Assembly (NCBI GenBank): GCA_046340795.1
Contig: JBKDSV010000009.1
Location: 13,505-77,504 of the forward strand
DNA length: 64,000 nucleotides
From: Cyanobacteriota bacterium
GTDB lineage: Bacteria; Cyanobacteriota; Cyanobacteriia; PCC-6307; Cyanobiaceae
Reading direction: 5' to 3'
In this document: positions 13,600-62,840 of the stretch, one piece after another
Layout of the letters: the number at the start of each line of letters is the position of its first letter
Position numbering within the stretch: the first letter of the stretch is position 1
The notes under the pieces: model-generated
Told to the model about the DNA's origin: nothing
Databases searched by the model: none
Seen by the model: only the letters and a program-made list of their open reading frames with translations
Position numbers and translations under genes: made by a program

Positions 13600-14088
13600 T
13601 CAAGCGGCGGGTCTGGCTTTGCTCTGCTCCCTGCGGGGCTGGAGCTCGTCGGTGCGTAGATCTATGGCGTCCAGGCGCTGGCGGATGGCGATCAATTCCG
13701 CGAGAATGCGGCTGAGAAGCTCCTGGGTCACCGTGGAGGGGGTATTGAGCACTTCAACTGTGACTTCCTTGATGCGCAAGACATCGCGGGCAAAGCGGGC
13801 CACCTCGTTGGCATGAAACAACAGGGGTTGCTTGATATCGCTACGAAACTCCGGGTTGAGTCTGCGGGGGTTGAAGGGAGGATTGACGTTGCGTGGATCG
13901 GTATTGGTGTAACGGTACACGGAAGCTCTGGAACGATTCAGGGCCTTTTGAACGTCTTCAATCCCAATCAAACAGCCGCTGCCATTGCCTGATTCATAAG
14001 CTGGAGGGGGGACATCGGTTACGTCTGCTGGATGCTCGCCAGGAAGGTTGACAGGTTCGTGGGAAGCCTGGCTCGGTTGAGCAAACAT
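13600..14088 (-). CDS. Conserved cyanobacterial HTH-like protein (often labelled resolvase)
   Basis: IEDVQKALNRSRASVYRY HTH-like segment and C-terminal coiled coil; no serine recombinase catalytic domain visible. Confidence 0.65.
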   Translation of the reverse strand: MFAQPSQASHEPVNLPGEHPADVTDVPPPAYESGNGSGCLIGIEDVQKALNRSRASVYRYTNTDPRNVNPPFNPRRLNPEFRSDIKQPLLFHANEVARFARDVLRIKEVTVEVLNTPSTVTQELLSRILAELIAIRQRLDAIDLRTDELQPRREQSKARPAA

Positions 14089-14231
14089 AAAGGTCAGCCT
14101 CGTTGGGTCCTGGCAGGAAAGGTCTTGCGAACTTAGCAGAGGTTTTCGGTCTCACGAGCCCCATTGGACACACGCGCAGATGCCCACCTCATGGCCAACT
14201 GATAGGTTCCGTGCGGACGCTCAACCTCCTC

Positions 14232-16037
14232 ATGCGCAGCTCTCGCCTGCTGCTAGTGACGCTTCGCGATGAGCCCGCAGAGGCAGAGATCATCTCCCAC
14301 AAACTTCTGCTGCGGGCCGGTTTCATCCGCCGCGTTTCCGCTGGCGTCTACGCCTACCTGCCGCTGATGTGGCGGGTGCTCCGCAAGGTGTCGGCGATTG
14401 TTCGTGAGGAAATGGACACCATTGGCGCCCTGGAGACCCTTCTGCCCCAACTCCAGCCCGCCGAGCTCTGGCAGCGCAGCGGCCGCTGGGCGGGGTACAC
14501 CGCTGGCGAAGGCATCCTGTTTCACCTGCACGACCGGCAGGGACGGGAGTTGGGATTGGGGCCGACCCACGAGGAGGTGGTGACCGCCCTGGCGGCGGAA
14601 TTGTTGCGCTCCTATCGCCAGCTGCCGGTTTGTCTTTATCAGATCCAGAGCAAATTCCGCGATGAGATCCGCCCCCGTTTCGGTTTGATGCGGGCCAGGG
14701 AATTCATCATGAAGGACGCCTATTCCTTCCATGCGGACGAGGACAGCCTGCGCCAGGCCTATGGCCAGATGGATGGAGCTTACAGGCGCATTTTCAAGCG
14801 CTGTGGGCTGCACACCGTCGCCGTCGAAGCGGACAGCGGCGCCATTGGCGGTTCGGCCAGCCAGGAATTCATGGTGACGGCGGAGGCGGGGGAGGATCTG
14901 ATTCTGGCCAGCCCGGACGGCTGTTATGCCGCCAACCTCGAGCGGGCCGTCTCTCTGCCCCCGGACGCCCTTCCCCTGGCGAGCCAACCCTGCCGCGAAC
15001 TGCCCACCCCCGGGCAGCGGACGATCGCCGATCTTTGTGGCGCCCACGGGTTCCATCCTTCTCAAATCGTCAAGGTGCTCCTGCTGCTGGCCCGGTTTGC
15101 GGAGGGTGCCCCCCAGCCAGTGCTGGTCAGTCTGCGGGGGGATCAGCAGTTGAACCTGGTGAAGCTCTCCAATGCCCTCCAGGCGCGGGTGACAGGCCAG
15201 GGAGCCCTGCTTCAGGTGAGTCCGATCGAAGCGGATCATCTGCTGGCGGAAGGTCTGGCACCCCTACCGTTCGGATCCTTGGGGCCCCACCTCGCCGATG
15301 CGGCCTTCGCGGCAGCCAAACACTGGCGTCCCCGGCTGCTGCGCCTGGCGGATGCCACAGCTGCGGAGCTGACCTGTTTCGTCTGCGGCGCCAATCGCCA
15401 GGATGTGCACCTGGTGGGGGCCAGCTGGGACAGCCTGGCGGTCGCGCCGGAGAGCCTCGATCTGCGGGAGGCCCAAAGCGGCGATCGCTGCCTGCGGAAT
15501 CCGAGCCAGCGCCTGGAGGCGGCCCGGGGCATTGAGGTGGGTCACATTTTTCAGCTGGGTTGCAAGTACTCCGAAGCTCTGGGAGCCTCCTTCACCACCG
15601 AGCAGGGCGAGGAGCAAGCCCTGTGGATGGGCTGTTATGGCATCGGCGTCTCCCGGCTCGCCCAGGCGGCGGTGGAGCAACTGCATGACGACCAGGGCAT
15701 CTGTTGGCCCGTGTCGATCGCTCCGTTCGAGGTGATCGTGGTGATCGCCAATACCCAGGACACAACCCAGGTGGCCGTAGCGGAGACGCTCTATGACCAC
15801 TTGCGCCAGCAGGGGCTGGAGACCCTGCTGGATGACCGTCAGGAACGGGCGGGCGTGAAATTCAAGGATGCGGATCTGGTGGGCATTCCCTACCGGGTTG
15901 TCGTGGGCCGTGGGGCCGCCTCGGGCCAGGTGGAAGTGGTCTGCCGCCGCGGGGGCGATCCCCTGGCGCTGGAGGCCACCGCAGCTGTTGACTGGTTGCG
16001 GGAGCGGGTGCGTCAGGAGCGCTCGGGACTGGCTTGA
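14232..16037 (+). CDS. proS: Proline--tRNA ligase
   Basis: EIISHKLLLRAGFIR, LGPTHEE, FRDEIRPRFGLMRAREFIMKDAYSF, GIEVGHIFQLG, GCYGIGVSR. Confidence 0.97.
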   Translation: MRSSRLLLVTLRDEPAEAEIISHKLLLRAGFIRRVSAGVYAYLPLMWRVLRKVSAIVREEMDTIGALETLLPQLQPAELWQRSGRWAGYTAGEGILFHLHDRQGRELGLGPTHEEVVTALAAELLRSYRQLPVCLYQIQSKFRDEIRPRFGLMRAREFIMKDAYSFHADEDSLRQAYGQMDGAYRRIFKRCGLHTVAVEADSGAIGGSASQEFMVTAEAGEDLILASPDGCYAANLERAVSLPPDALPLASQPCRELPTPGQRTIADLCGAHGFHPSQIVKVLLLLARFAEGAPQPVLVSLRGDQQLNLVKLSNALQARVTGQGALLQVSPIEADHLLAEGLAPLPFGSLGPHLADAAFAAAKHWRPRLLRLADATAAELTCFVCGANRQDVHLVGASWDSLAVAPESLDLREAQSGDRCLRNPSQRLEAARGIEVGHIFQLGCKYSEALGASFTTEQGEEQALWMGCYGIGVSRLAQAAVEQLHDDQGICWPVSIAPFEVIVVIANTQDTTQVAVAETLYDHLRQQGLETLLDDRQERAGVKFKDADLVGIPYRVVVGRGAASGQVEVVCRRGGDPLALEATAAVDWLRERVRQERSGLA

Positions 16038-49947: not shown

Positions 49948-49970
49948 CAAAAAGCCCGGACGCGCCGGGC
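49948..49970 (-). terminator. Rho-independent terminator of Yfr1
   Basis: Minus strand GCCCGGCGCGTCCGGGC followed by TTTTT. Confidence 0.85.
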
Positions 49971-50007
49971 CAAACGGTGTGAGGAGTGTGCGAGCCGTAG
50001 CCCCCAC
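49948..50007 (-). ncRNA. yfr1: Yfr1 small RNA; ends approximate
   Basis: Minus-strand ACTCCTCACAC at 49987-49977, between a 5' stem-loop and a GC hairpin plus U-tract; located between guaB and trxA as known for Yfr1. Confidence 0.9.
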
Positions 50008-56011: not shown

Positions 56012-56095
56012 GCCGAGGCTGAGCCAAAAGAATTGTGGCCGTCCCAGTCATCGCGATGAACGCTGCATAGCTTGATCGCAGTCTTTCTTGGTCCC

Positions 56096-56929
56096 ATGGC
56101 GAAGTACGCCCTGTGCATCGGCATCAACGACTATCCAGGCACGCAGAATGATTTGCGCGGATGTGTCAACGATGCCAACGATTGGGCGGCCACCCTGGCG
56201 AGCCGTGGTTTCCGTGTGAGCCAGCTGCTCAACAGCCAGGCCACCAAGGCCGCGCTGGTGGCGGGCTTCCAGCAGCTGATCAGCGGCGCCAACAGTGGCG
56301 ACACCATCGCCATCACCTTCTCCGGCCACGGCACCCTGGCCCCCGACAACAGCGGTGATGAGATTGACGGCTACGACGAAGCCCTCTGCCCCTACGACAT
56401 CCATCAAGGCCAGGTGCTTCTGGATGATGAGATCCACCAGCTGTTCGCGCAGCGGGCCGCTGGCGTGCGGCTGATTTTGATCTCCGACAGCTGCCACTCC
56501 GGCACGGTGACCCGCAACGCCCCTGCCGATCCCGACGCCACCGACGCTCCCCGCATTCGCTTTCTCCCCCTGGCCAGCTGGTTGCCAGACGCGGAACTGC
56601 CCAGAGGCGCTGGCGGCAAACCCCTCGCCAACCTGCCCATCACTCAGGTGTTCTCCCCCTGGGCCGGCGTGGTGCGTTCAGCGGGGGATCTGCTACTGGC
56701 CGGCTGTGAGGAGGGGCCCGATCACTTCAGCTACGACGCCAACTTCAACCAACGCGCCAACGGAGCCTTCACCTATTACGCCCTGCGGACCTTGAAAACC
56801 CTTCCCCCCACGGCCAGCTACCGCGACTGGCACGCCGCCATCCGCCGTTGTCTGCCCTCCACCAACTATCCGCAGAAGCCGCAACTGATGGGCACCAAAG
56901 CCACCTTGTCCTCCCCCGTCCTGGCCTGA
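56096..56929 (+). CDS. Stand-alone metacaspase (peptidase C14)
   Basis: ALCIGINDY, LRGCVND, FSGHG (His codon 56327), GDEIDGYDEAL, ISDSCHSG (Cys codon 56492), GAFT, QKPQL. Confidence 0.93.
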   Translation: MAKYALCIGINDYPGTQNDLRGCVNDANDWAATLASRGFRVSQLLNSQATKAALVAGFQQLISGANSGDTIAITFSGHGTLAPDNSGDEIDGYDEALCPYDIHQGQVLLDDEIHQLFAQRAAGVRLILISDSCHSGTVTRNAPADPDATDAPRIRFLPLASWLPDAELPRGAGGKPLANLPITQVFSPWAGVVRSAGDLLLAGCEEGPDHFSYDANFNQRANGAFTYYALRTLKTLPPTASYRDWHAAIRRCLPSTNYPQKPQLMGTKATLSSPVLA

Positions 56930-56939
56930 GGGGAGTGTC

Positions 56940-59900
56940 ATGCCGCCTCCGCCCGCTCTTGAGCCCGCCCTACCCCCCCCTTCCGTTCTGAGGGGGGTGG
57001 CACTGGAGAACCCGCCGCCGCCGGCCCTGTTGCGGCCCCAGGCCAGACCGGCGGGCAGGGATGTGGGCGCCAGTCCCTTGGCAACGGCGCAGATGCCGGA
57101 CGAGGACCTCCTCTCGCCAGCCTTTGTGCGGGTGGATCGCGCCTTCGACCTGACGGCCAGCGCCCGGGAGGCCACCGCCATCGTCTCGCCCCTGACGGAC
57201 TTGCCCGACGAGCAAGTGGTGGTGCTGGAACTCGTGGAGGACGGCGGCACGGCCATCACCACGGCGGGGGACTTGCGGCGGCGACAGGAGCATTGGCTCT
57301 CCACCGCCGCAGCGACCAGCCAGAGCCAGCGGGGTGTGGTGCCCACAGGACTCTTCAGCCGGCTCTACACCCTCACCTTTGGCGACGATGGCCTGCAGCG
57401 GGTGGTGGAGCAGCGGCTCAAGGCACTGGCGCGGGAGCAGCTGGGCGAAGCCGTGGGAGAGGCGATCCAGATCAATGCCTCCTGGCTGGCCACCAAGCTG
57501 CTGCTGAAACTGACCGAAGACCGCCTTCCCTGCCCGCCGGGTCTCTACCGCTGGCGGGGTGGCGCCAGCGGAGGGGGCCCCCCCCTGGCGGCTGATGACC
57601 CCACCTTGCGGGCGGATGCCGCCTGTGGACTGCTGGTGTTTGTGCACGGAACGGGTTCAAACAGCCAAGCTGGCTTCGGCGAGCTGGCCACAGCGGGTGC
57701 GGGGATCTGGCCCTTGCTGGAGAGCGCCTACGGCGAGCGGATCTACGGCTTCGAACAGCAGACTTTTTCCGCCAGTCCGATTGACAATGCCCTCGCCCTG
57801 GCCCAGAGCCTGCCCTGCGGCGCCCGGTTGAATCTGGTGAGCCACGGCAGCGGTGGATTGGTGGCGGATCTGCTCTGCGCCGAGGGCATTGAGGATGCTT
57901 TGATCGAGGCCTATCGCTACCCGTCAGCCGAGAAGACGAAGCAGACCAGCCAGCGGGATGCGGCAGCCGCGGAGCAGAGGGAACGGCTGCGGCAGCTGCG
58001 CGGCGTGTTGGCGGAGAAGGCGTTGCGGATCGAGCGCTACGTCAGGGTCGCCAGCCCCGCCCGCGGCAGCCGCCTGCTGGGCGACAACCTCGACCTCTTT
58101 CTGTCGGTCCTCCTCTCCTTGATCAGTGGCCTGCCTGCGTTGGCGGGCCAACCGGCGGTGGCCGTGCTCAAGCGGTTGGTGCTGGATGTGGTGCGCCGAC
58201 GCCTGGATCCCTGCCTGATCCCGGGTCTGGCCGCCCTGGCACCCGATGCGCCGCTGGCGGCCCTGCTGGACCGACTTCCGCCCCGATCCGGCCTGGCCAT
58301 GGCCACCCTGTCCGGCCAGCGGAGCGGGGGCCATCCCCTGCAGAGGCTCGCGCTGCTGTTCAGCGACACCCTCTTCTTCCAACGCTGCCCCAACGATCTG
58401 ATCGTCGATACCGACGCCATGCAGGCCGGCCTTGCCCGCCGCGCCGGGGCCCACGGTTGGCTGGAGAAGGGTCCGAGCGTGAACCACTTCCACTATTTCG
58501 CGCGTCCGTCCTGCGCCCGGGCCCTGGCGCGCTGGCTCACGGAGCGCCAGCCACTGGAGCTGGGCGAGTTTCTCCCCCTCGCGAGCAACCCGGGGGAGCG
58601 GGAGCGCCTTCGCACCCGGGAGAGCGATGCCCGGGAGGAAGCCAGCGCCGCCCGAGGGCGTGGGGCGTCTGTCGAAGCCAGCCAGCCGGTGGTGGTGGTG
58701 GTGCCCGGATTCATGGGCTCCCATCTCTGGCGCCAGACCCGCCAAGAGCGGATCTGGTTTGATCCTCGCCATGGAATCGGTGAACGCCTGCGTCAGCTGA
58801 GCGACCTTCAGGACGCGGCGCTTGAGCCGGAAAAGCTGTTGGATCTCATCTATGGCGACCTCTGCCGAACGCTGCTCGAGAGCCACCGGGTCGTGCGTTT
58901 TCCCTACGACTGGCGCCAGCCCCTCGAGCTCCTGGCCGAACGCCTTGGGGCGGTGCTGCGTCCGTTGGTGGCGGAGGCGGAGGAACGGCGCCCTGTGCGC
59001 CTCCTGGCCCATGGCATGGGGGGACTGGTGGTGCGGGCCTGCATGGCCCGGGACCCCGATCTCTGGCAGCGGTTGATCCAGCTGAAGGGCGCCCGCTTCC
59101 TGATGTTGGGCACCCCCAACCACGGCTCCCACGCGCTCGTGGAAACCCTCCTGGGCCAGTCGCCCATGATCCGCAACCTCGCCAGGGTGAGCCGGGACCT
59201 GGAGTTGCGGGAGCTGGTGGCGCTGGTGGCTGGTTTTCCGGGAGCCTTGCAACTGCTGCCCCGACCGGGTGCCGAGTCGCTGGATGGCGCCGCCGAGGAC
59301 GACCTGTTGAGCGCCCATGGCCCCTTCAACGGCCTGAGCTGGTATGCGGAGGAGCTCTGGACACAGTTGAAAAGCCACAATCGCGACCGTTGGTTCGGCG
59401 ACCAGCTCGGCGCCACCCCCGATGCCGCCACCCTGACCCGAGGACGCTGGCTGTGGGAACAACCCGCCAGCCTCGCTGAGCTCTCCGGCGATCCGGATCG
59501 GGTGATCTACGTGCACGGTCAGGCTCGCCGCACCCCCTGCGGCGTCACCCTGCGGCAAGGACAGCTGCGGATGCTCAGCACCACGGCGGGCGATGGAGTC
59601 GTCACCTGGAACGCGGGCCGCTGGGAGGGCATCGGCCACTACTACCGGATGGAGGCCGATCACGGCAGCCTCCCCTGCCGCCGCGACCACTTTCCCGCCT
59701 TGGTGGAACTGCTGCGGGAGGGGGGAACCAACGCCCTTGCCCCCATGCCCCGCACCCGGGGGAGCGGGGACGCGCCGCCTCCCGTCCTGCCTTGGCAGCC
59801 CGGCCCCACCCCCTTTCCCAGCGAAGAGGAGCTATTCCGCAGCCTGGTGGGGGGGCAGCCCCTGCCCCCGGAGGAATCGGCCGCCACGGCGGCCCTGCAG

Positions 59901-62840
59901 GTGTCCTGCCACGCCATGGACGTGCGCTACGTCAACCAACCCGTGATGGTGGGGCACTACGAGGCGGATGCCATCGCCGCGGCTGAAGCCCTGATCGACC
60001 GCGACCTCGTGGCTGGCGAGCTGAGCAGTCGCAATCGTCTCGGTCTCTACGCCGGTCCGCGCGGAACGGCCACGGTGGTGCTGATGACGACAAGTGCCAG
60101 GGAGCTGCGGGAGGGCGGTTGTCGTGGCGCAGTGGTGATCGGCCTCGGCACCATGGGCGAACTGTCGACCGTGGCCCTCACCGAGGCGGTGCGGGTGGGC
60201 ACGCTGCGCTACCTGCTGCAACTCCTGGATCGGGCGACTGGCGCCACCAAACCCGCACTGGTGGTGGGCCTGGCCAGCCTTCTGATCGGCCAGAACTCGG
60301 GCAATGACATTCACATCGACGATTCCGTCACCGCTCTGGTGGAGGGGGTGCTGGCCGCCAACGAGCAGTTCGCCACCACCTTCCCCGCCATGGCCCTGCG
60401 GGTGGGACAGCTGCAGTTGGTGGAGCTCTATCTCGACACGGCGATCACCGCCACCCGGGCGTTGGCAGGCCTCGAAAGCCGTCTGAACCGCGATGGCGTA
60501 CGGGTGTTGAACGTCGAGCGCGAGCTGCAGTTCGGCAAGGGATGGCGGCACCGGCTGGCGGCGGCGTGGGAGAGTGGCTATTGGCCCCGCATGCTGATCA
60601 GCAATGGGGAGCCCGCCAAGGGCGATGGGCCCACGGCGGACAGCGAGGGGCAACGTCCGGGAGTGCAGCTGGCCAACACCCTGAGCTTCTCCTTCCTGGG
60701 ACAGCGGGCCCGGGCGGAGACTCTGCAGCAGAAACGGCAGAGCGGCTTGGTGGAGGCACTGGTGGCGGCCTGCATCCAAACCCCCACCACCCATCCGGAT
60801 CTGTCCCGCACCCTGTTTCAACTGCTGGTGCCCTCATCGTTCAAGCAGCTGGCCCGCCAGTTGGAACAGCTGGTGCTGGTGTTGGATGACACCACCGCCA
60901 ATGTGCCATGGGAACTGCTCATGGCGGATGACAAACCCCTGGCCCTGCAGCTCGCGGTGGTGCGCCAGCTGCAGGCTTCCCGCTTTCGCGAGCGGTTGCA
61001 CAAGACCACCAGCCGCAATGCCTATGTGATCGGCAACCCAAGCAGTGAAGGCTTTTTCAAGGTGTTCGTCGGCGAGGGGAGCATGGGCTCCACGGGACTG
61101 GCCAGTCTGGAGGGAGCCCGCCAGGAGGCGGAGAGCGTGCTCAGCTTGCTGAGAGAGCGGGCATACGACTGCGAAGAGTCGATTCAAGAGGAGAACGCCG
61201 TGGATGTGATCAACAAGCTTTATCGCCGTCCCTATCGCCTGCTCCACATCGCCGGCCACGGGGTGTACGACCATCCCAGCCGATCGGGCGAACGGCGCAG
61301 CGGCGTGGTGCTTGCCGGCGGCCTGTTGATCACCGTCTCTGAGATCGAGGCGAGGGAGGTGGTGCCGGATCTGGTGTTCCTCAACTGCTGCCACCTGGGC
61401 ACGGTGAAGCGCGAACCCGTGGCCTTCAACCGGCTGGCGGCGAGCGTGGCGGCACAACTGATCGAGATGGGGGTGCGCGCGGTGGTGGCCTGTGGCTGGG
61501 CGGTGGATGACACGGCGGCCCTGGCGTTCGCGCAAACCTTCTACACCGCGATGCTGCAAGGCGTCCCCTTCGGCAATGCGGTCTTCCTAGCCCGCAAGGA
61601 GGCGCACGCCGTCAATCCCAACAGCACCACCTGGGGCGCTTACCAGGCCTATGGCGATCCGGACTACCAACTGGAGGAGTCCCGAGGCGGCTCCAGCCCT
61701 GGCCTGGAACCCGCCACGGCCGAGGCGGCGGAGCCAAGGCCCTGGTCATGGGTGACGCCGATGGAGTTGATCGATCAGCTCCAGCAGCTGGTGGTGCGTC
61801 TTCGCCAGGGTGACAGCCAGGCTCCGGTGCGCCAGTCCCTCCCGGCCGAGCTGGAGTCCCTGCTGAAGACCGCCCCACCCGCCTGGCTGAGCCAGGCGGA
61901 GGTCGCCGTGGCCGTGGCTGACGTCTACGCCGCCTGCGGGGGAGAGCATCAGGAGGAGGCCTGCCGTCATTACCTGGCCGCCATTCGGGCCCATCAAGGC
62001 ACCGATCGGTTGCCGATTCGCGCCATTGAGCAACTGGCCAACCTGGAGGCCCGGCTCGGCGAACGGAGCGATGACGCCCCCCGTGTGATGGCGGCCATCG
62101 AGCGCCTGCGGGCCTTGCTCCGCATCGCCAGCGCAGGAGCCACCCCCGCCACAGGCTCGGCGGCGGCGGGGCCTCCGGAGTGGCAGGCCCTGCTCGGGAG
62201 CGCCTGGAAGCGTCTGGCCGCCCTGCGCGCGCGGGCACTGGTCGCCTCCGGCCGCGCGGGCAAGGAAGCGCTCCAGACCGTGATGGAGCCCCTGGAAGCC
62301 GCCATCGCGGCCTACGGCCTGGCGGGCGGCGATCTCTGCAACCAGTTGAATCTCCTCGCCCTGCAGGCGGTGCGGGATCTCCACCGTGCCGCCGATGCCC
62401 AGGCGATCCGGCACGCCCAGGCCCTGGCCGAGGAACACCAGGGCCTCGCCCGAAGCCAGGCCATTCCCACCTTCTGGAGCGCTGTGGCCGGGGCCGATGC
62501 CCTGCTGGTGGGGCGCCTTGTGGACCACCAGCTGGCGGCGGAGGGCGCCCCGGGGGAGGCGACAGCCCGCCAGGTGCTGGAGAGCTACCAGGAGGTCTTC
62601 CTCAACGTTCGCGCCACCCTCTTGGAACGGGAATCGGTACTGGAGCAGCTCTCCCTGCTGGCGGACGTGGCGCGTGCCCGGGGCAGGAGCCGCACGGATC
62701 TCTGCCCCGCGGCAGCCCTCCTCGCCCAACGGCTGGAGACCATCGAACGCGCCCTGCGAGAGTCGGCGCTGGGCAGGGCCTCGCCGCTGGCGGCGGGCGG
62801 TGACAGGGAGGAGGAGGACGCGATGGAGACCCTGAGCTGA
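56940..62840 (+). CDS. 1966-aa multidomain protein: two alpha/beta-hydrolase-like domains, CHAT protease, helical TPR-like tail
   Basis: VFVHGTGS/VSHGSGG; VVPGFMGS/FPYDWR/AHGMGG/LGTPNHGS; CHAT VPWELL, LHIAGHG, VFLNCCH, GWAVDD, WGAYQAYGDP. Confidence 0.9.
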   Translation: MPPPPALEPALPPPSVLRGVALENPPPPALLRPQARPAGRDVGASPLATAQMPDEDLLSPAFVRVDRAFDLTASAREATAIVSPLTDLPDEQVVVLELVEDGGTAITTAGDLRRRQEHWLSTAAATSQSQRGVVPTGLFSRLYTLTFGDDGLQRVVEQRLKALAREQLGEAVGEAIQINASWLATKLLLKLTEDRLPCPPGLYRWRGGASGGGPPLAADDPTLRADAACGLLVFVHGTGSNSQAGFGELATAGAGIWPLLESAYGERIYGFEQQTFSASPIDNALALAQSLPCGARLNLVSHGSGGLVADLLCAEGIEDALIEAYRYPSAEKTKQTSQRDAAAAEQRERLRQLRGVLAEKALRIERYVRVASPARGSRLLGDNLDLFLSVLLSLISGLPALAGQPAVAVLKRLVLDVVRRRLDPCLIPGLAALAPDAPLAALLDRLPPRSGLAMATLSGQRSGGHPLQRLALLFSDTLFFQRCPNDLIVDTDAMQAGLARRAGAHGWLEKGPSVNHFHYFARPSCARALARWLTERQPLELGEFLPLASNPGERERLRTRESDAREEASAARGRGASVEASQPVVVVVPGFMGSHLWRQTRQERIWFDPRHGIGERLRQLSDLQDAALEPEKLLDLIYGDLCRTLLESHRVVRFPYDWRQPLELLAERLGAVLRPLVAEAEERRPVRLLAHGMGGLVVRACMARDPDLWQRLIQLKGARFLMLGTPNHGSHALVETLLGQSPMIRNLARVSRDLELRELVALVAGFPGALQLLPRPGAESLDGAAEDDLLSAHGPFNGLSWYAEELWTQLKSHNRDRWFGDQLGATPDAATLTRGRWLWEQPASLAELSGDPDRVIYVHGQARRTPCGVTLRQGQLRMLSTTAGDGVVTWNAGRWEGIGHYYRMEADHGSLPCRRDHFPALVELLREGGTNALAPMPRTRGSGDAPPPVLPWQPGPTPFPSEEELFRSLVGGQPLPPEESAATAALQVSCHAMDVRYVNQPVMVGHYEADAIAAAEALIDRDLVAGELSSRNRLGLYAGPRGTATVVLMTTSARELREGGCRGAVVIGLGTMGELSTVALTEAVRVGTLRYLLQLLDRATGATKPALVVGLASLLIGQNSGNDIHIDDSVTALVEGVLAANEQFATTFPAMALRVGQLQLVELYLDTAITATRALAGLESRLNRDGVRVLNVERELQFGKGWRHRLAAAWESGYWPRMLISNGEPAKGDGPTADSEGQRPGVQLANTLSFSFLGQRARAETLQQKRQSGLVEALVAACIQTPTTHPDLSRTLFQLLVPSSFKQLARQLEQLVLVLDDTTANVPWELLMADDKPLALQLAVVRQLQASRFRERLHKTTSRNAYVIGNPSSEGFFKVFVGEGSMGSTGLASLEGARQEAESVLSLLRERAYDCEESIQEENAVDVINKLYRRPYRLLHIAGHGVYDHPSRSGERRSGVVLAGGLLITVSEIEAREVVPDLVFLNCCHLGTVKREPVAFNRLAASVAAQLIEMGVRAVVACGWAVDDTAALAFAQTFYTAMLQGVPFGNAVFLARKEAHAVNPNSTTWGAYQAYGDPDYQLEESRGGSSPGLEPATAEAAEPRPWSWVTPMELIDQLQQLVVRLRQGDSQAPVRQSLPAELESLLKTAPPAWLSQAEVAVAVADVYAACGGEHQEEACRHYLAAIRAHQGTDRLPIRAIEQLANLEARLGERSDDAPRVMAAIERLRALLRIASAGATPATGSAAAGPPEWQALLGSAWKRLAALRARALVASGRAGKEALQTVMEPLEAAIAAYGLAGGDLCNQLNLLALQAVRDLHRAADAQAIRHAQALAEEHQGLARSQAIPTFWSAVAGADALLVGRLVDHQLAAEGAPGEATARQVLESYQEVFLNVRATLLERESVLEQLSLLADVARARGRSRTDLCPAAALLAQRLETIERALRESALGRASPLAAGGDREEEDAMETLS

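Follow-up and report, generated by a model that had tools for sequence, protein, structure and literature searches.

Why would a bacterium keep two tandem hydrolase domains that both lack the catalytic nucleophile, in a protein that also carries a protease with an intact catalytic dyad? The question is raised by a multidomain open reading frame (ORF) in the window analysed here, a stretch of 64,000 nucleotides from a Cyanobacteriota bacterium of the Cyanobiaceae (GenBank assembly GCA_046340795.1, contig JBKDSV010000009.1, positions 13,505 to 77,504 of the forward strand). A prediction made from the sequence of the window alone, hereafter the original prediction, had noted Gly in place of the nucleophile Ser in both α/β-hydrolase domains, and had proposed that they were selected as non-catalytic, lipid- or ester-binding sensors that gate the fused protease. 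We find that the loss is genuine and that it belongs to a series of losses within a single picocyanobacterial clade. On balance, the ORF probably encodes a disarmed version, specific to this clade and without lipase catalysis, of a multidomain protein that is widespread; the dead lipase domains would be kept as non-catalytic structural or regulatory parts, and the output would be proteolysis. By analogy with known systems, the product is predicted to be an immune or cell-death protein.

Several precedents frame this problem. An α/β-hydrolase regularly accompanies caspase-superfamily domains in prokaryotic conflict systems, and inactive enzyme domains recur in such systems (Kaur et al. 2020, PMC7159879). 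The caspase-associated LcHydrolase is a zymogen which LcCaspase cuts at two conserved R|G sites, leading to cell death (Evans et al. 2025, PMC12642450). In a type III-B CRISPR cascade, a SAVED-CHAT protease processes a neighbouring caspase-like protease, PCaspase (bioRxiv 10.1101/2024.10.24.620036).

Architecture of the multidomain protein

The domains follow one another in the order N-terminal region, DUF7379 lipase-like domain, domain resembling LCAT and lysosomal phospholipase A2 (LPLA2), macro-like domain, CHAT protease and TPR-S. The frame is unbroken across the hydrolase/CHAT boundary in Logan contigs from four sequencing runs. The features of the hydrolase half are as follows.

56940-62840, plus strand: multidomain ORF, 1,966 amino acids in a single continuous frame, residue 1 at 56940
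56940-57614, plus strand: N-terminal region, residues 1-225, without a known domain
57615-58619, plus strand: α/β-hydrolase domain 1 (DUF7379), residues 226-560, assigned from PF24096, alignments and lipase fold matches; nucleophile missing
57846-57851, plus strand: Gly303 (GGC, 57846-57848) and Ser304 (AGC) in V-S-H-G-S-G-G-L, replacing a family-invariant Ser and Arg
58695-59744, plus strand: α/β-hydrolase domain 2 (LCAT/LPLA2-like), residues 586-935, assigned from the LPLA2 alignment, Foldseek and the family alignment; nucleophile missing
59013-59015, plus strand: Gly692 (GGC) in L-A-H-G-M-G-G-L, replacing the nucleophile Ser of AHSMGG

Domain 1 is matched by the Pfam profile PF24096 (DUF7379) over residues 232-316, at 73.8 bits against a gathering cut-off of 33, and this profile is found in all close homologues of the ORF. 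The profile matches of domain 2 are weak: PF02450 (LCAT) scores 19.4 bits, below its cut-off of 21, and PGAP1 (PF07819) 12.6, below its gathering value of 24.3, with the sub-threshold match of LCAT/PGAP1 type at residues 650-738. A sequence search of the PDB gave no match for the macro/CHAT half and a marginal one only for domain 1, and a fold search was therefore used. An AlphaFold2 model of residues 190-960 (pLDDT 81, with low confidence around Asp486) has the α/β-hydrolase fold, with Foldseek matches to LPLA2, LCAT, Tle4 and Geobacillus-type lipases at E values from 2e-8 to 1e-5, LPLA2 (4x92, 2e-8) being the best. The remaining landmarks of the fold that had been listed in the original prediction are real and occupy family-conserved columns, namely the HGTGS oxyanion loop, Asp486 (58395-97) and His516 (58485-87) in domain 1, and the PGFMGS oxyanion loop, FPYDWR, GTPNHGS, Asp885 (59592-94) and His908 (59661-63) in domain 2.

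Both nucleophile elbows lack serine

The nucleophile Ser of the x-H-S-x-G-G elbow is absent from both domains of the window protein, and there is no conserved alternative nucleophile. The elbows read SHGSGG and AHGMGG, as first noted, and the codons of the ORF, the LPLA2 alignment, the structural model and sequencing reads all agree on this. In phmmer alignments, Gly692 falls on the nucleophile Ser (AHSMGN) of LPLA2 in 4x90 and on the corresponding position of the S165A mutant, 4x92. In the model, both glycines lie at a strand-to-helix turn, that is, at the nucleophile elbow (strand 107-113 and helix 116-123, and strand 497-502 and helix 504-515, in model numbering). Both GGC codons recur without any difference in the Logan contigs of the four runs, which come from freshwater metagenomes of at least three studies. 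The loss of both catalytic serines is genuine and fixed in natural populations.

Two ways of explaining the glycines away had been named at the outset, and neither holds. Assembly error is ruled out by the agreement of four independently assembled runs, which are identical at both codons and at the domain junction. A shift of the nucleophile to the adjacent Ser304 is rejected as well: this residue replaces an invariant Arg, and the position varies among relatives (S, S, Q, G, L), so that it is not a catalytic stand-in.

Separately, one low-depth contig of 151 nucleotides from run X1 (depth 2 versus 12.8) joins 57950-57970 to 58685-58705. It carries 36 unrelated letters between two 21-nucleotide anchors and is probably a chance match or derives from a divergent co-occurring strain.

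Most of the family retains both serines

Relatives of the ORF were collected with a word-indexed search, which gave 55, and with a profile search over 1.84 billion representatives, which gave 15,858 matches at E<=1e-3 and 1,978 at E<=1e-30 (about 2,000 clusters at 50% identity). The best 150 matches are mostly proteins of 1,750-2,190 amino acids with [ST]HSRGG and AHSMGG elbows, and family members were found in Proteobacteria, Bacteroidota, Nitrospirota, Actinobacteria and Cyanobacteria. We further inspected 80 genome loci spanning Beta- and Gammaproteobacteria, Bacteroidota, Nitrospirota, Acidobacteriota, Mycolicibacterium and Cyanobium, and CHAT lies downstream of the hydrolases in essentially all of them. 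Judging from these sequences, the fusion of tandem hydrolases to CHAT is the normal architecture of the family. The idea that it is a peculiarity of this ORF was discarded, fused proteins of 1,750-2,100 amino acids being usual; the few 'split' versions (L004, L005, L088 and L003) may be frameshifted assemblies. Literature searches on DUF7379, on TPR-S with CHAT and on PGAP1/LCAT with CHAT returned no paper on the lipase-CHAT family.

In an alignment of 182 sequences, the nucleophile column of domain 1 contains Ser in 171, Gly in 4, Ala in 2 and Cys in 1; the elbow consensus is [ST]HSRGG, with Arg at the +1 position in 172 sequences. The corresponding column of domain 2 (consensus AHSMGG) contains Ser in 152, Gly in 23 and Asn in 1. 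The other catalytic columns are near-invariant, with Asp486 in 181/181, His516 in 180/180, Asp885 in 163/165 and His908 in 162/162. Because about 85-95% of the family retains both serines, the ancestral state appears to be a pair of serine hydrolases and the ancestral role to be enzymatic, that is, an effector function. Tabulated on a neighbour-joining tree, as the original prediction had proposed to do together with an analysis of selection, the loss of the domain-2 nucleophile proves recurrent, with at least 13 events, and that of the domain-1 nucleophile rare.

A second, unrelated lineage has lost both nucleophiles: it is represented by P0175 and P0197, the elbows of P0175 reading TLGRGG and THGTGV. 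The P0175 locus (L086:2211-12138) contains two caspase genes upstream, one of them fused to Amidase_2, and a Fic/DUF4172 gene nearby.

A mosaic of nucleophile states in one picocyanobacterial clade

The closest relatives of the ORF bear the labels Cyanobacteriota or Cyanobium, and the reads that carry it were obtained from freshwater metagenomes. A metagenome scan with exact peptides of the window found no relatives, and a scan with the clade alignment found nine. The orthologues share the gene order gyrA, caspase, multidomain gene, crtL, and gyrA and the caspase also stand upstream in L090 and L093. Compared with L087, amino acid identity is 90% for gyrA, 81% for the caspase, 50% for the multidomain protein and 78% for crtL.

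The states of the two elbows (domain 1/domain 2) differ strikingly among these orthologues. The window protein is Gly/Gly; P0003 has Gly in domain 1, and its domain 2 is deleted in frame; P0001 and P0002 are both Ala/Gly. Ser/Gly is found in P0077 (L087), in L091 and L092 (SHSRGG/AHGMGG) and in L093 (SHSSGG/AHGMGG), and the reverse combination, Gly/Ser, in L089 and L090 (SHGLGG/AHSMGG). The whole mosaic lies inside a clade with 100% bootstrap support, to which three of the four losses of the domain-1 nucleophile found in any lineage belong. That orthologues show Ser/Gly, Gly/Ser, Ala/Gly, Gly/Gly and Gly/deleted argues for repeated, independent and piecemeal loss of the nucleophile, in either domain, within one lineage in which catalysis would have become dispensable. 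An ordered scenario, in which domain 1 dies only after domain 2, had seemed attractive (Fisher p=3e-5 on tips) and is refuted by L089 and L090, which are Gly/Ser within the clade.

The codons tell a different history for each domain. The original prediction had each GGC a single base from a Ser AGC, and for domain 2 this stands: the nearest Ser-bearing relatives use AGC, one transition away from the Gly codon. For domain 1 it does not, since Ser is encoded by TCN family-wide (TCC in Cyanobium L007). Relatives carry Ala GCC, which suggests a path of two steps, from TCC through GCC to GGC.

Full-length ORFs of 1,947-1,980 amino acids are intact in L087, L090, L091 and L093, and there may be some decay within the clade. 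The closest relative, L003:624-5314 (73% identical), has a clean in-frame deletion of window residues ~576-971, that is, of domain 2, and is split into ORFs of 842 and 727 amino acids by a frameshift in a G7 run which is either real or an assembly error. The macro-like region of P0002 contains an in-frame stop (L002:4498-4500, SSR*RLGVYAGP) beyond which homology continues, and P0002 is possibly a pseudogene or affected by a sequencing error.

Selection on the dead domains

In comparisons of the window protein with its relatives, the ratio of nonsynonymous to synonymous substitution rates (dN/dS, pairwise Nei-Gojobori) is 0.29-0.45 for the dead domain 1 and 0.32-0.45 for the dead domain 2, next to 0.25-0.43 for the macro-like domain, 0.22-0.40 for CHAT and 0.43-0.77 for the C-terminal TPR-S region; the values for gyrA and the caspase are 0.07 and 0.16. 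Within the clade, domain 1 gives 0.18-0.23 in live pairs versus 0.29-0.37 in dead pairs, and when its dN is divided by that of the macro-like domain in the same pair, the ranges overlap (0.84-1.04 live versus 0.73-1.23 dead). Rates of the dead domains normalised in this way to the macro-like domain lie within the range of Ser/Ser pairs elsewhere in the family.

The pattern of conserved positions points the same way. The window protein still keeps 85 of the 96 positions that are conserved at >=93% in Ser/Ser sequences, and the lost ones cluster with the nucleophiles (H273Q, S303G, R304S, E431A and D460Q in domain 1; G615E and S692G in domain 2). Every dead copy, 6 of domain 1 and 21 of domain 2, still has its Asp and His, at a mean pairwise identity of about 41%. 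The catalytic residue has thus been lost and the fold kept under purifying selection, as dN/dS, the conserved positions and the intact ORFs together indicate, which marks the domains as putative pseudoenzymes. The original prediction had allowed for neutral evolution with accumulating lesions in close relatives; on the evidence of the substitution rates, the 85 of 96 conserved positions and the retained Asp and His, the dead domains are not neutral relics and purifying selection continues, but lesions are indeed present in L003 and L002.

One further change recurs in dead copies of domain 2. In many independent lineages, the oxyanion loop (residues 589-594) has changed from PGxMGS to PD/ExxA[ST] after the Ser-to-Gly replacement, as seen in P0001, P0002, P0077, L091, L093, P0061, P0075, P0019, P0114 and others. 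The remodelled loop is absent from all Ser-bearing sequences that we inspected individually, and across the 149 Ser/Ser sequences as a whole the columns of G590 and G593 are 99% Gly. The window protein has not undergone this remodelling and still reads PGFMGS. The parallel loop change and the invariant Asp and His are the best arguments that these sequences provide for a selected non-catalytic or altered function.

As to expression, short contigs identical to the gene at 57035-57341, 60046-60238 and 61885-62645 occur in two metatranscriptomes (X25, freshwater, and X26, sediment). They are weak evidence of transcription and may reflect DNA carry-over.

The protease half, candidate cleavage sites and the upstream orthocaspase

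The remaining features of the ORF and the gene upstream of it are listed below.

57165-57167, plus strand: R76, 98% conserved, with poorly conserved flanks; candidate Arg-specific protease site
57330-57335, plus strand: R131-G132, Arg 93% conserved, with poorly conserved flanks; candidate Arg-specific protease site
58653-58658, plus strand: R572-G573 in the linker between the hydrolase domains, Arg 89% conserved, flank conservation 0.11, next residue G/A/S in 72%
59757-59762, plus strand: R940-G941 in the linker after domain 2, Arg 88% conserved, next residue G/A/S in 82%
59892-60494, plus strand: macro-like domain, residues ~985-1185, assigned from the model fold, with conserved GHYxxD and GAxxxGLG motifs
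60801-61658, plus strand: CHAT protease, residues 1288-1573, PF12770 8.9e-31, 107.8 bits against a cut-off of 24
61956-62324, plus strand: TPR-S-like repeats, residues 1673-1795, PF20308 22.8 bits, below the cut-off of 27.6; predicted sensor
56072-56929, plus strand: orthocaspase/metacaspase-like gene (Peptidase_C14), likely true start ATG 56096

The His/Cys dyad of CHAT is intact (His1440, 61257-59; Cys1484, 61389-91), and both residues are invariant in 122 full-length homologues. A second AlphaFold2 model, of residues 936-1600 (pLDDT 84.5), gives a CHAT fold with Foldseek matches to Csx29, separase, gingipain and SAVED-CHAT, and the C-terminal half of the protein keeps 61 of its 62 conserved residues. 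The description of two nucleophile-less hydrolase domains fused to an active protease is therefore borne out as far as the PF12770 match and the dyad can carry it: the protease is predicted to be active. In PADLOC, CHAT gave only a weak BovA-like match, and the other match was to a generic caspase model.

The macro-like region of the window protein had no match in the Pfam profile search, and PF02789 is carried by some homologues. By Foldseek, the model of this region resembles the N-domains of leucine aminopeptidases, TTHA0132 (TMt 0.72) and the macro domains of PARP9, macroH2A and viruses (TMt 0.6-0.66), at E values of about 2e-4; on this structural likeness, it is a possible sensor of a nucleotide or ADP-ribose-type ligand beside CHAT. 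PF20308, the TPR-S profile, is carried by the homologue P0041 and by a neighbour at L005. No other part of the protein has a dN/dS as high as the C-terminal TPR-S region (61559-62837), in which syntenic orthologues share only 34% identity, and such fast evolution is consistent with a diversifying sensor. At L005, a Ser/Ser homologue locus, a gene with TIR_2 and Pterin_4a domains (13955-14848) lies directly downstream of the CHAT/TPR-S gene, which hints at a link to TIR signalling.

All four listed arginines are present in the window protein. Their conservation across the family is 88-98%, in segments that otherwise vary and are rich in gaps, and the next residue is usually Gly, Ala or Ser; this pattern marks R76, R131, R572 and R940 as candidate Arg-specific protease sites separating the domains.

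The gene directly upstream encodes an orthocaspase with both catalytic motifs, SGHG (from 56321) and DSCHSG (from 56486). It matches PF00656 at 5.4e-26 in Pfam and GSU0716 (3bij) at 4e-32 in phmmer, with both motifs aligned. A caspase gene occupies the same position in L001-L004, L087 and L090-L093 and in about 27 of the 80 genome loci. Farther away in the window, Yfr1 (the Rfam cyanobacterial functional RNA 1) is encoded at 49951-50007 on the minus strand (61 bits against a gathering value of 38), which confirms that the window is of cyanobacterial origin.

Comparison with known systems

The linkage of caspase and α/β-hydrolase that typifies prokaryotic conflict systems is present here, with a C14 caspase directly upstream and CHAT fused. 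The family thus appears to belong to the known class of caspase/α/β-hydrolase conflict modules, of which the disarmed copy would be a variant.

Among characterised hydrolases, LPLA2 and LCAT (PF02450; 4x90-4x97, 4x96) match the structure of the hydrolase region best: the PYDWR, AH-x-MG and LG-P-G motifs align, as does Gly692 with the catalytic Ser165, and Asp and His are shared. In contrast to these enzymes, the window domain lacks the nucleophile, scores below the Pfam cut-off and is a cytoplasmic, bacterial part of a 1,966-residue protease fusion. Tle4 (4r1d), a phospholipase effector of type VI secretion and the second-best structural match (E 1.1e-7), is a bacterial toxin-type lipase with an α/β-hydrolase core and a large helical insertion. 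Tle4 is, however, an active, secreted antibacterial toxin with an immunity protein, whereas the window protein has neither the Ser nor a type VI secretion context and is fused to a protease.

On the side of the proteases, the TPR-CHAT protein of Craspase (Csx29, 8d9f/7y9x) and the SAVED-CHAT protein that acts on PCaspase (8tl0) match in the CHAT fold, the His/Cys dyad and the fused sensor-type domain, and as in the SAVED-CHAT/PCaspase pair, the adjacent gene encodes a separate caspase-like protease. The window differs from both in having neither a CRISPR nor a SAVED context, the sensor candidates being TPR-S and the macro-like domain, and its tandem lipase-like domains have no counterpart in either system.

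In the LcCaspase-LcHydrolase pair, the R|G sites of the hydrolase are resembled by R131-G, R572-G and R940-G of the window protein, where cleavage is accordingly a prediction from sequence. Unlike caspase-associated hydrolase effectors, the window domains cannot be hydrolytic death effectors, because both lack the nucleophile.

Non-catalytic α/β-hydrolase folds with demonstrated binding functions include the neuroligins, which have Gly at the nucleophile position, and the GID1 receptor. The window domains resemble these in that a hydrolase fold with a replaced catalytic residue is kept under purifying selection, but differ in that their orthologues switch freely between Ser and Gly.

Interpretation and alternatives

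The mechanism that we propose is modelled on the SAVED-CHAT to PCaspase cascade and on the activation of a hydrolase zymogen by LcCaspase. In most of the family, both lipase domains would be enzymes that bring about death in a conflict system gated by proteases: CHAT would be switched on by a sensor (TPR-S, the macro-like domain or both), and CHAT and/or the orthocaspase would cut the conserved Arg-Gly sites in the linkers, which would free the lipases as effectors and set off a caspase cascade. In the picocyanobacterial lineage, lipase catalysis would have been given up, leaving proteolysis alone as the output, and the dead lipase domains would persist as a scaffold, an autoinhibitory pro-domain or a cleavage substrate and not as new lipid sensors. 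The unrelated double-dead P0175 and P0197, with two upstream caspase genes, fit a proteolytic output.

Several points tell against this interpretation. The system-level mechanism would hold by analogy only; LcHydrolase stands alone as a protein of about 33 kDa, set against two tandem domains fused to a protease, and its likeness to them is one of genetic coupling to proteases and of Arg-Gly motifs. A caspase partner is present in only about one third of the family loci, and the lipase-lipase-macro-CHAT-TPR-S family, very large as it is, has no experimental characterisation. The dN/dS values are pairwise Nei-Gojobori estimates from GC-rich, partly saturated sequences. A purely structural role would not explain the invariant Asp and His together with the parallel change of PG..G to PD..A, and the lesions in relatives (the deleted domain 2, the frameshift and the in-frame stop) fit slow decay equally well.

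Such decay, in which the lineage can do without the lipase half, or the entire cassette, and is losing it stepwise, the window copy being an intermediate that precedes disruptive lesions, is unlikely, although it has more in its favour than any other alternative. It accords with the concentration of three of the four domain-1 losses in one small clade where domain 2 was also repeatedly lost, with the lesions of L003 and L002, with a large protein that evolves far faster than its neighbours (50% identity versus 81-90%) and with a dN/dS that is modestly higher in dead than in live copies of domain 1. However, dN/dS is well below 1 in all domains and the dead ones evolve no faster than the macro-like domain; five lineages with only about 50% identity have intact ORFs of 1,947-1,980 amino acids; Asp and His are retained in full, as are 61 of the 62 conserved residues of the C-terminal half; there are traces in metatranscriptomes; and the frameshift of L003, falling in a G7 run, may be an assembly error.

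That the Ser-less domains became lipid- or ester-binding sensor modules gating CHAT, much as the GID1 receptor derives from a hydrolase, is doubtful. Purifying selection maintains the folds, Asp and His and most motifs of the pocket, and the recurrence of G590D/E and G593A in several independent lineages with a dead domain 2 hints at selection for a new configuration. But the closest relative has deleted domain 2 in frame and kept the remainder, the orthologues (Ser/Gly, Gly/Ser, Ala/Gly and Gly/Gly) show no consistent sensor configuration, some 85-95% of the family keep both serines, and the window copy itself lacks the PD..A remodelling. The idea is weakened further because dedicated sensor-type domains exist in the same protein, the fast-evolving TPR-S region and the macro-like domain being better candidates for that role. 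The gating of CHAT by the hydrolases, as originally proposed, thus finds no specific support. Nor does the step from which it was drawn, that loss of the same residue in both domains implies selection: Gly or Ala is what a strained nucleophile elbow tolerates, the GGC of domain 2 is a single transition from AGC, and the orthologues form a mosaic.

It is likewise rather improbable that the Gly-elbow domains were repurposed into pseudo-lipase modules which, by binding a ligand or by autoinhibition, keep an immune CHAT/caspase cascade under control, a reading suggested by the invariant His and Asp and by the convergent change of PG..G to PD..A after Ser loss.

An altered chemistry, in which the His-Asp pair acts without Ser, through direct activation of water or in another reaction, so that the domains are still enzymes, is very unlikely. 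The invariance of Asp and His in dead domains (6/6 and 21/21) at a mean identity of about 41% and the canonical PGFMGS loop of the window domain 2 would agree with it, but domain 1 has also lost the family-invariant +1 Arg, H273, E431 and D460, and the oxyanion loop degenerates in most other lineages with a dead domain 2. To our knowledge, no Ser-less activity has been described for LCAT/PGAP1-like folds.

Finally, the chance that the glycines are sequencing or assembly errors, or that the domain-1 nucleophile has moved to the Ser at +1, is negligible: each GGC is one base from AGC and Ser304 directly follows Gly303, but the codons are identical in four independently assembled runs, relatives at 52-76% identity have the same loss, and the +1 position, where an invariant Arg is replaced, is variable.

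Implications

The syntenic locus holds a natural catalytic-dead series (Ser/Gly, Gly/Ser, Ala/Gly, Gly/Gly and domain deleted), and this allelic series could show whether the hydrolase modules linked to caspases and CHAT need lipase chemistry or use these domains as scaffolds, pro-domains or regulators. Were the domains instead repurposed, they would be a bacterial counterpart of receptor-type pseudo-hydrolases, and the Ser/Gly, Gly/Ser and Gly/Gly orthologues would be a ready-made allelic set for testing this. In freshwater picocyanobacteria, which are abundant, the locus is a candidate system of cell death or of defence against phages.

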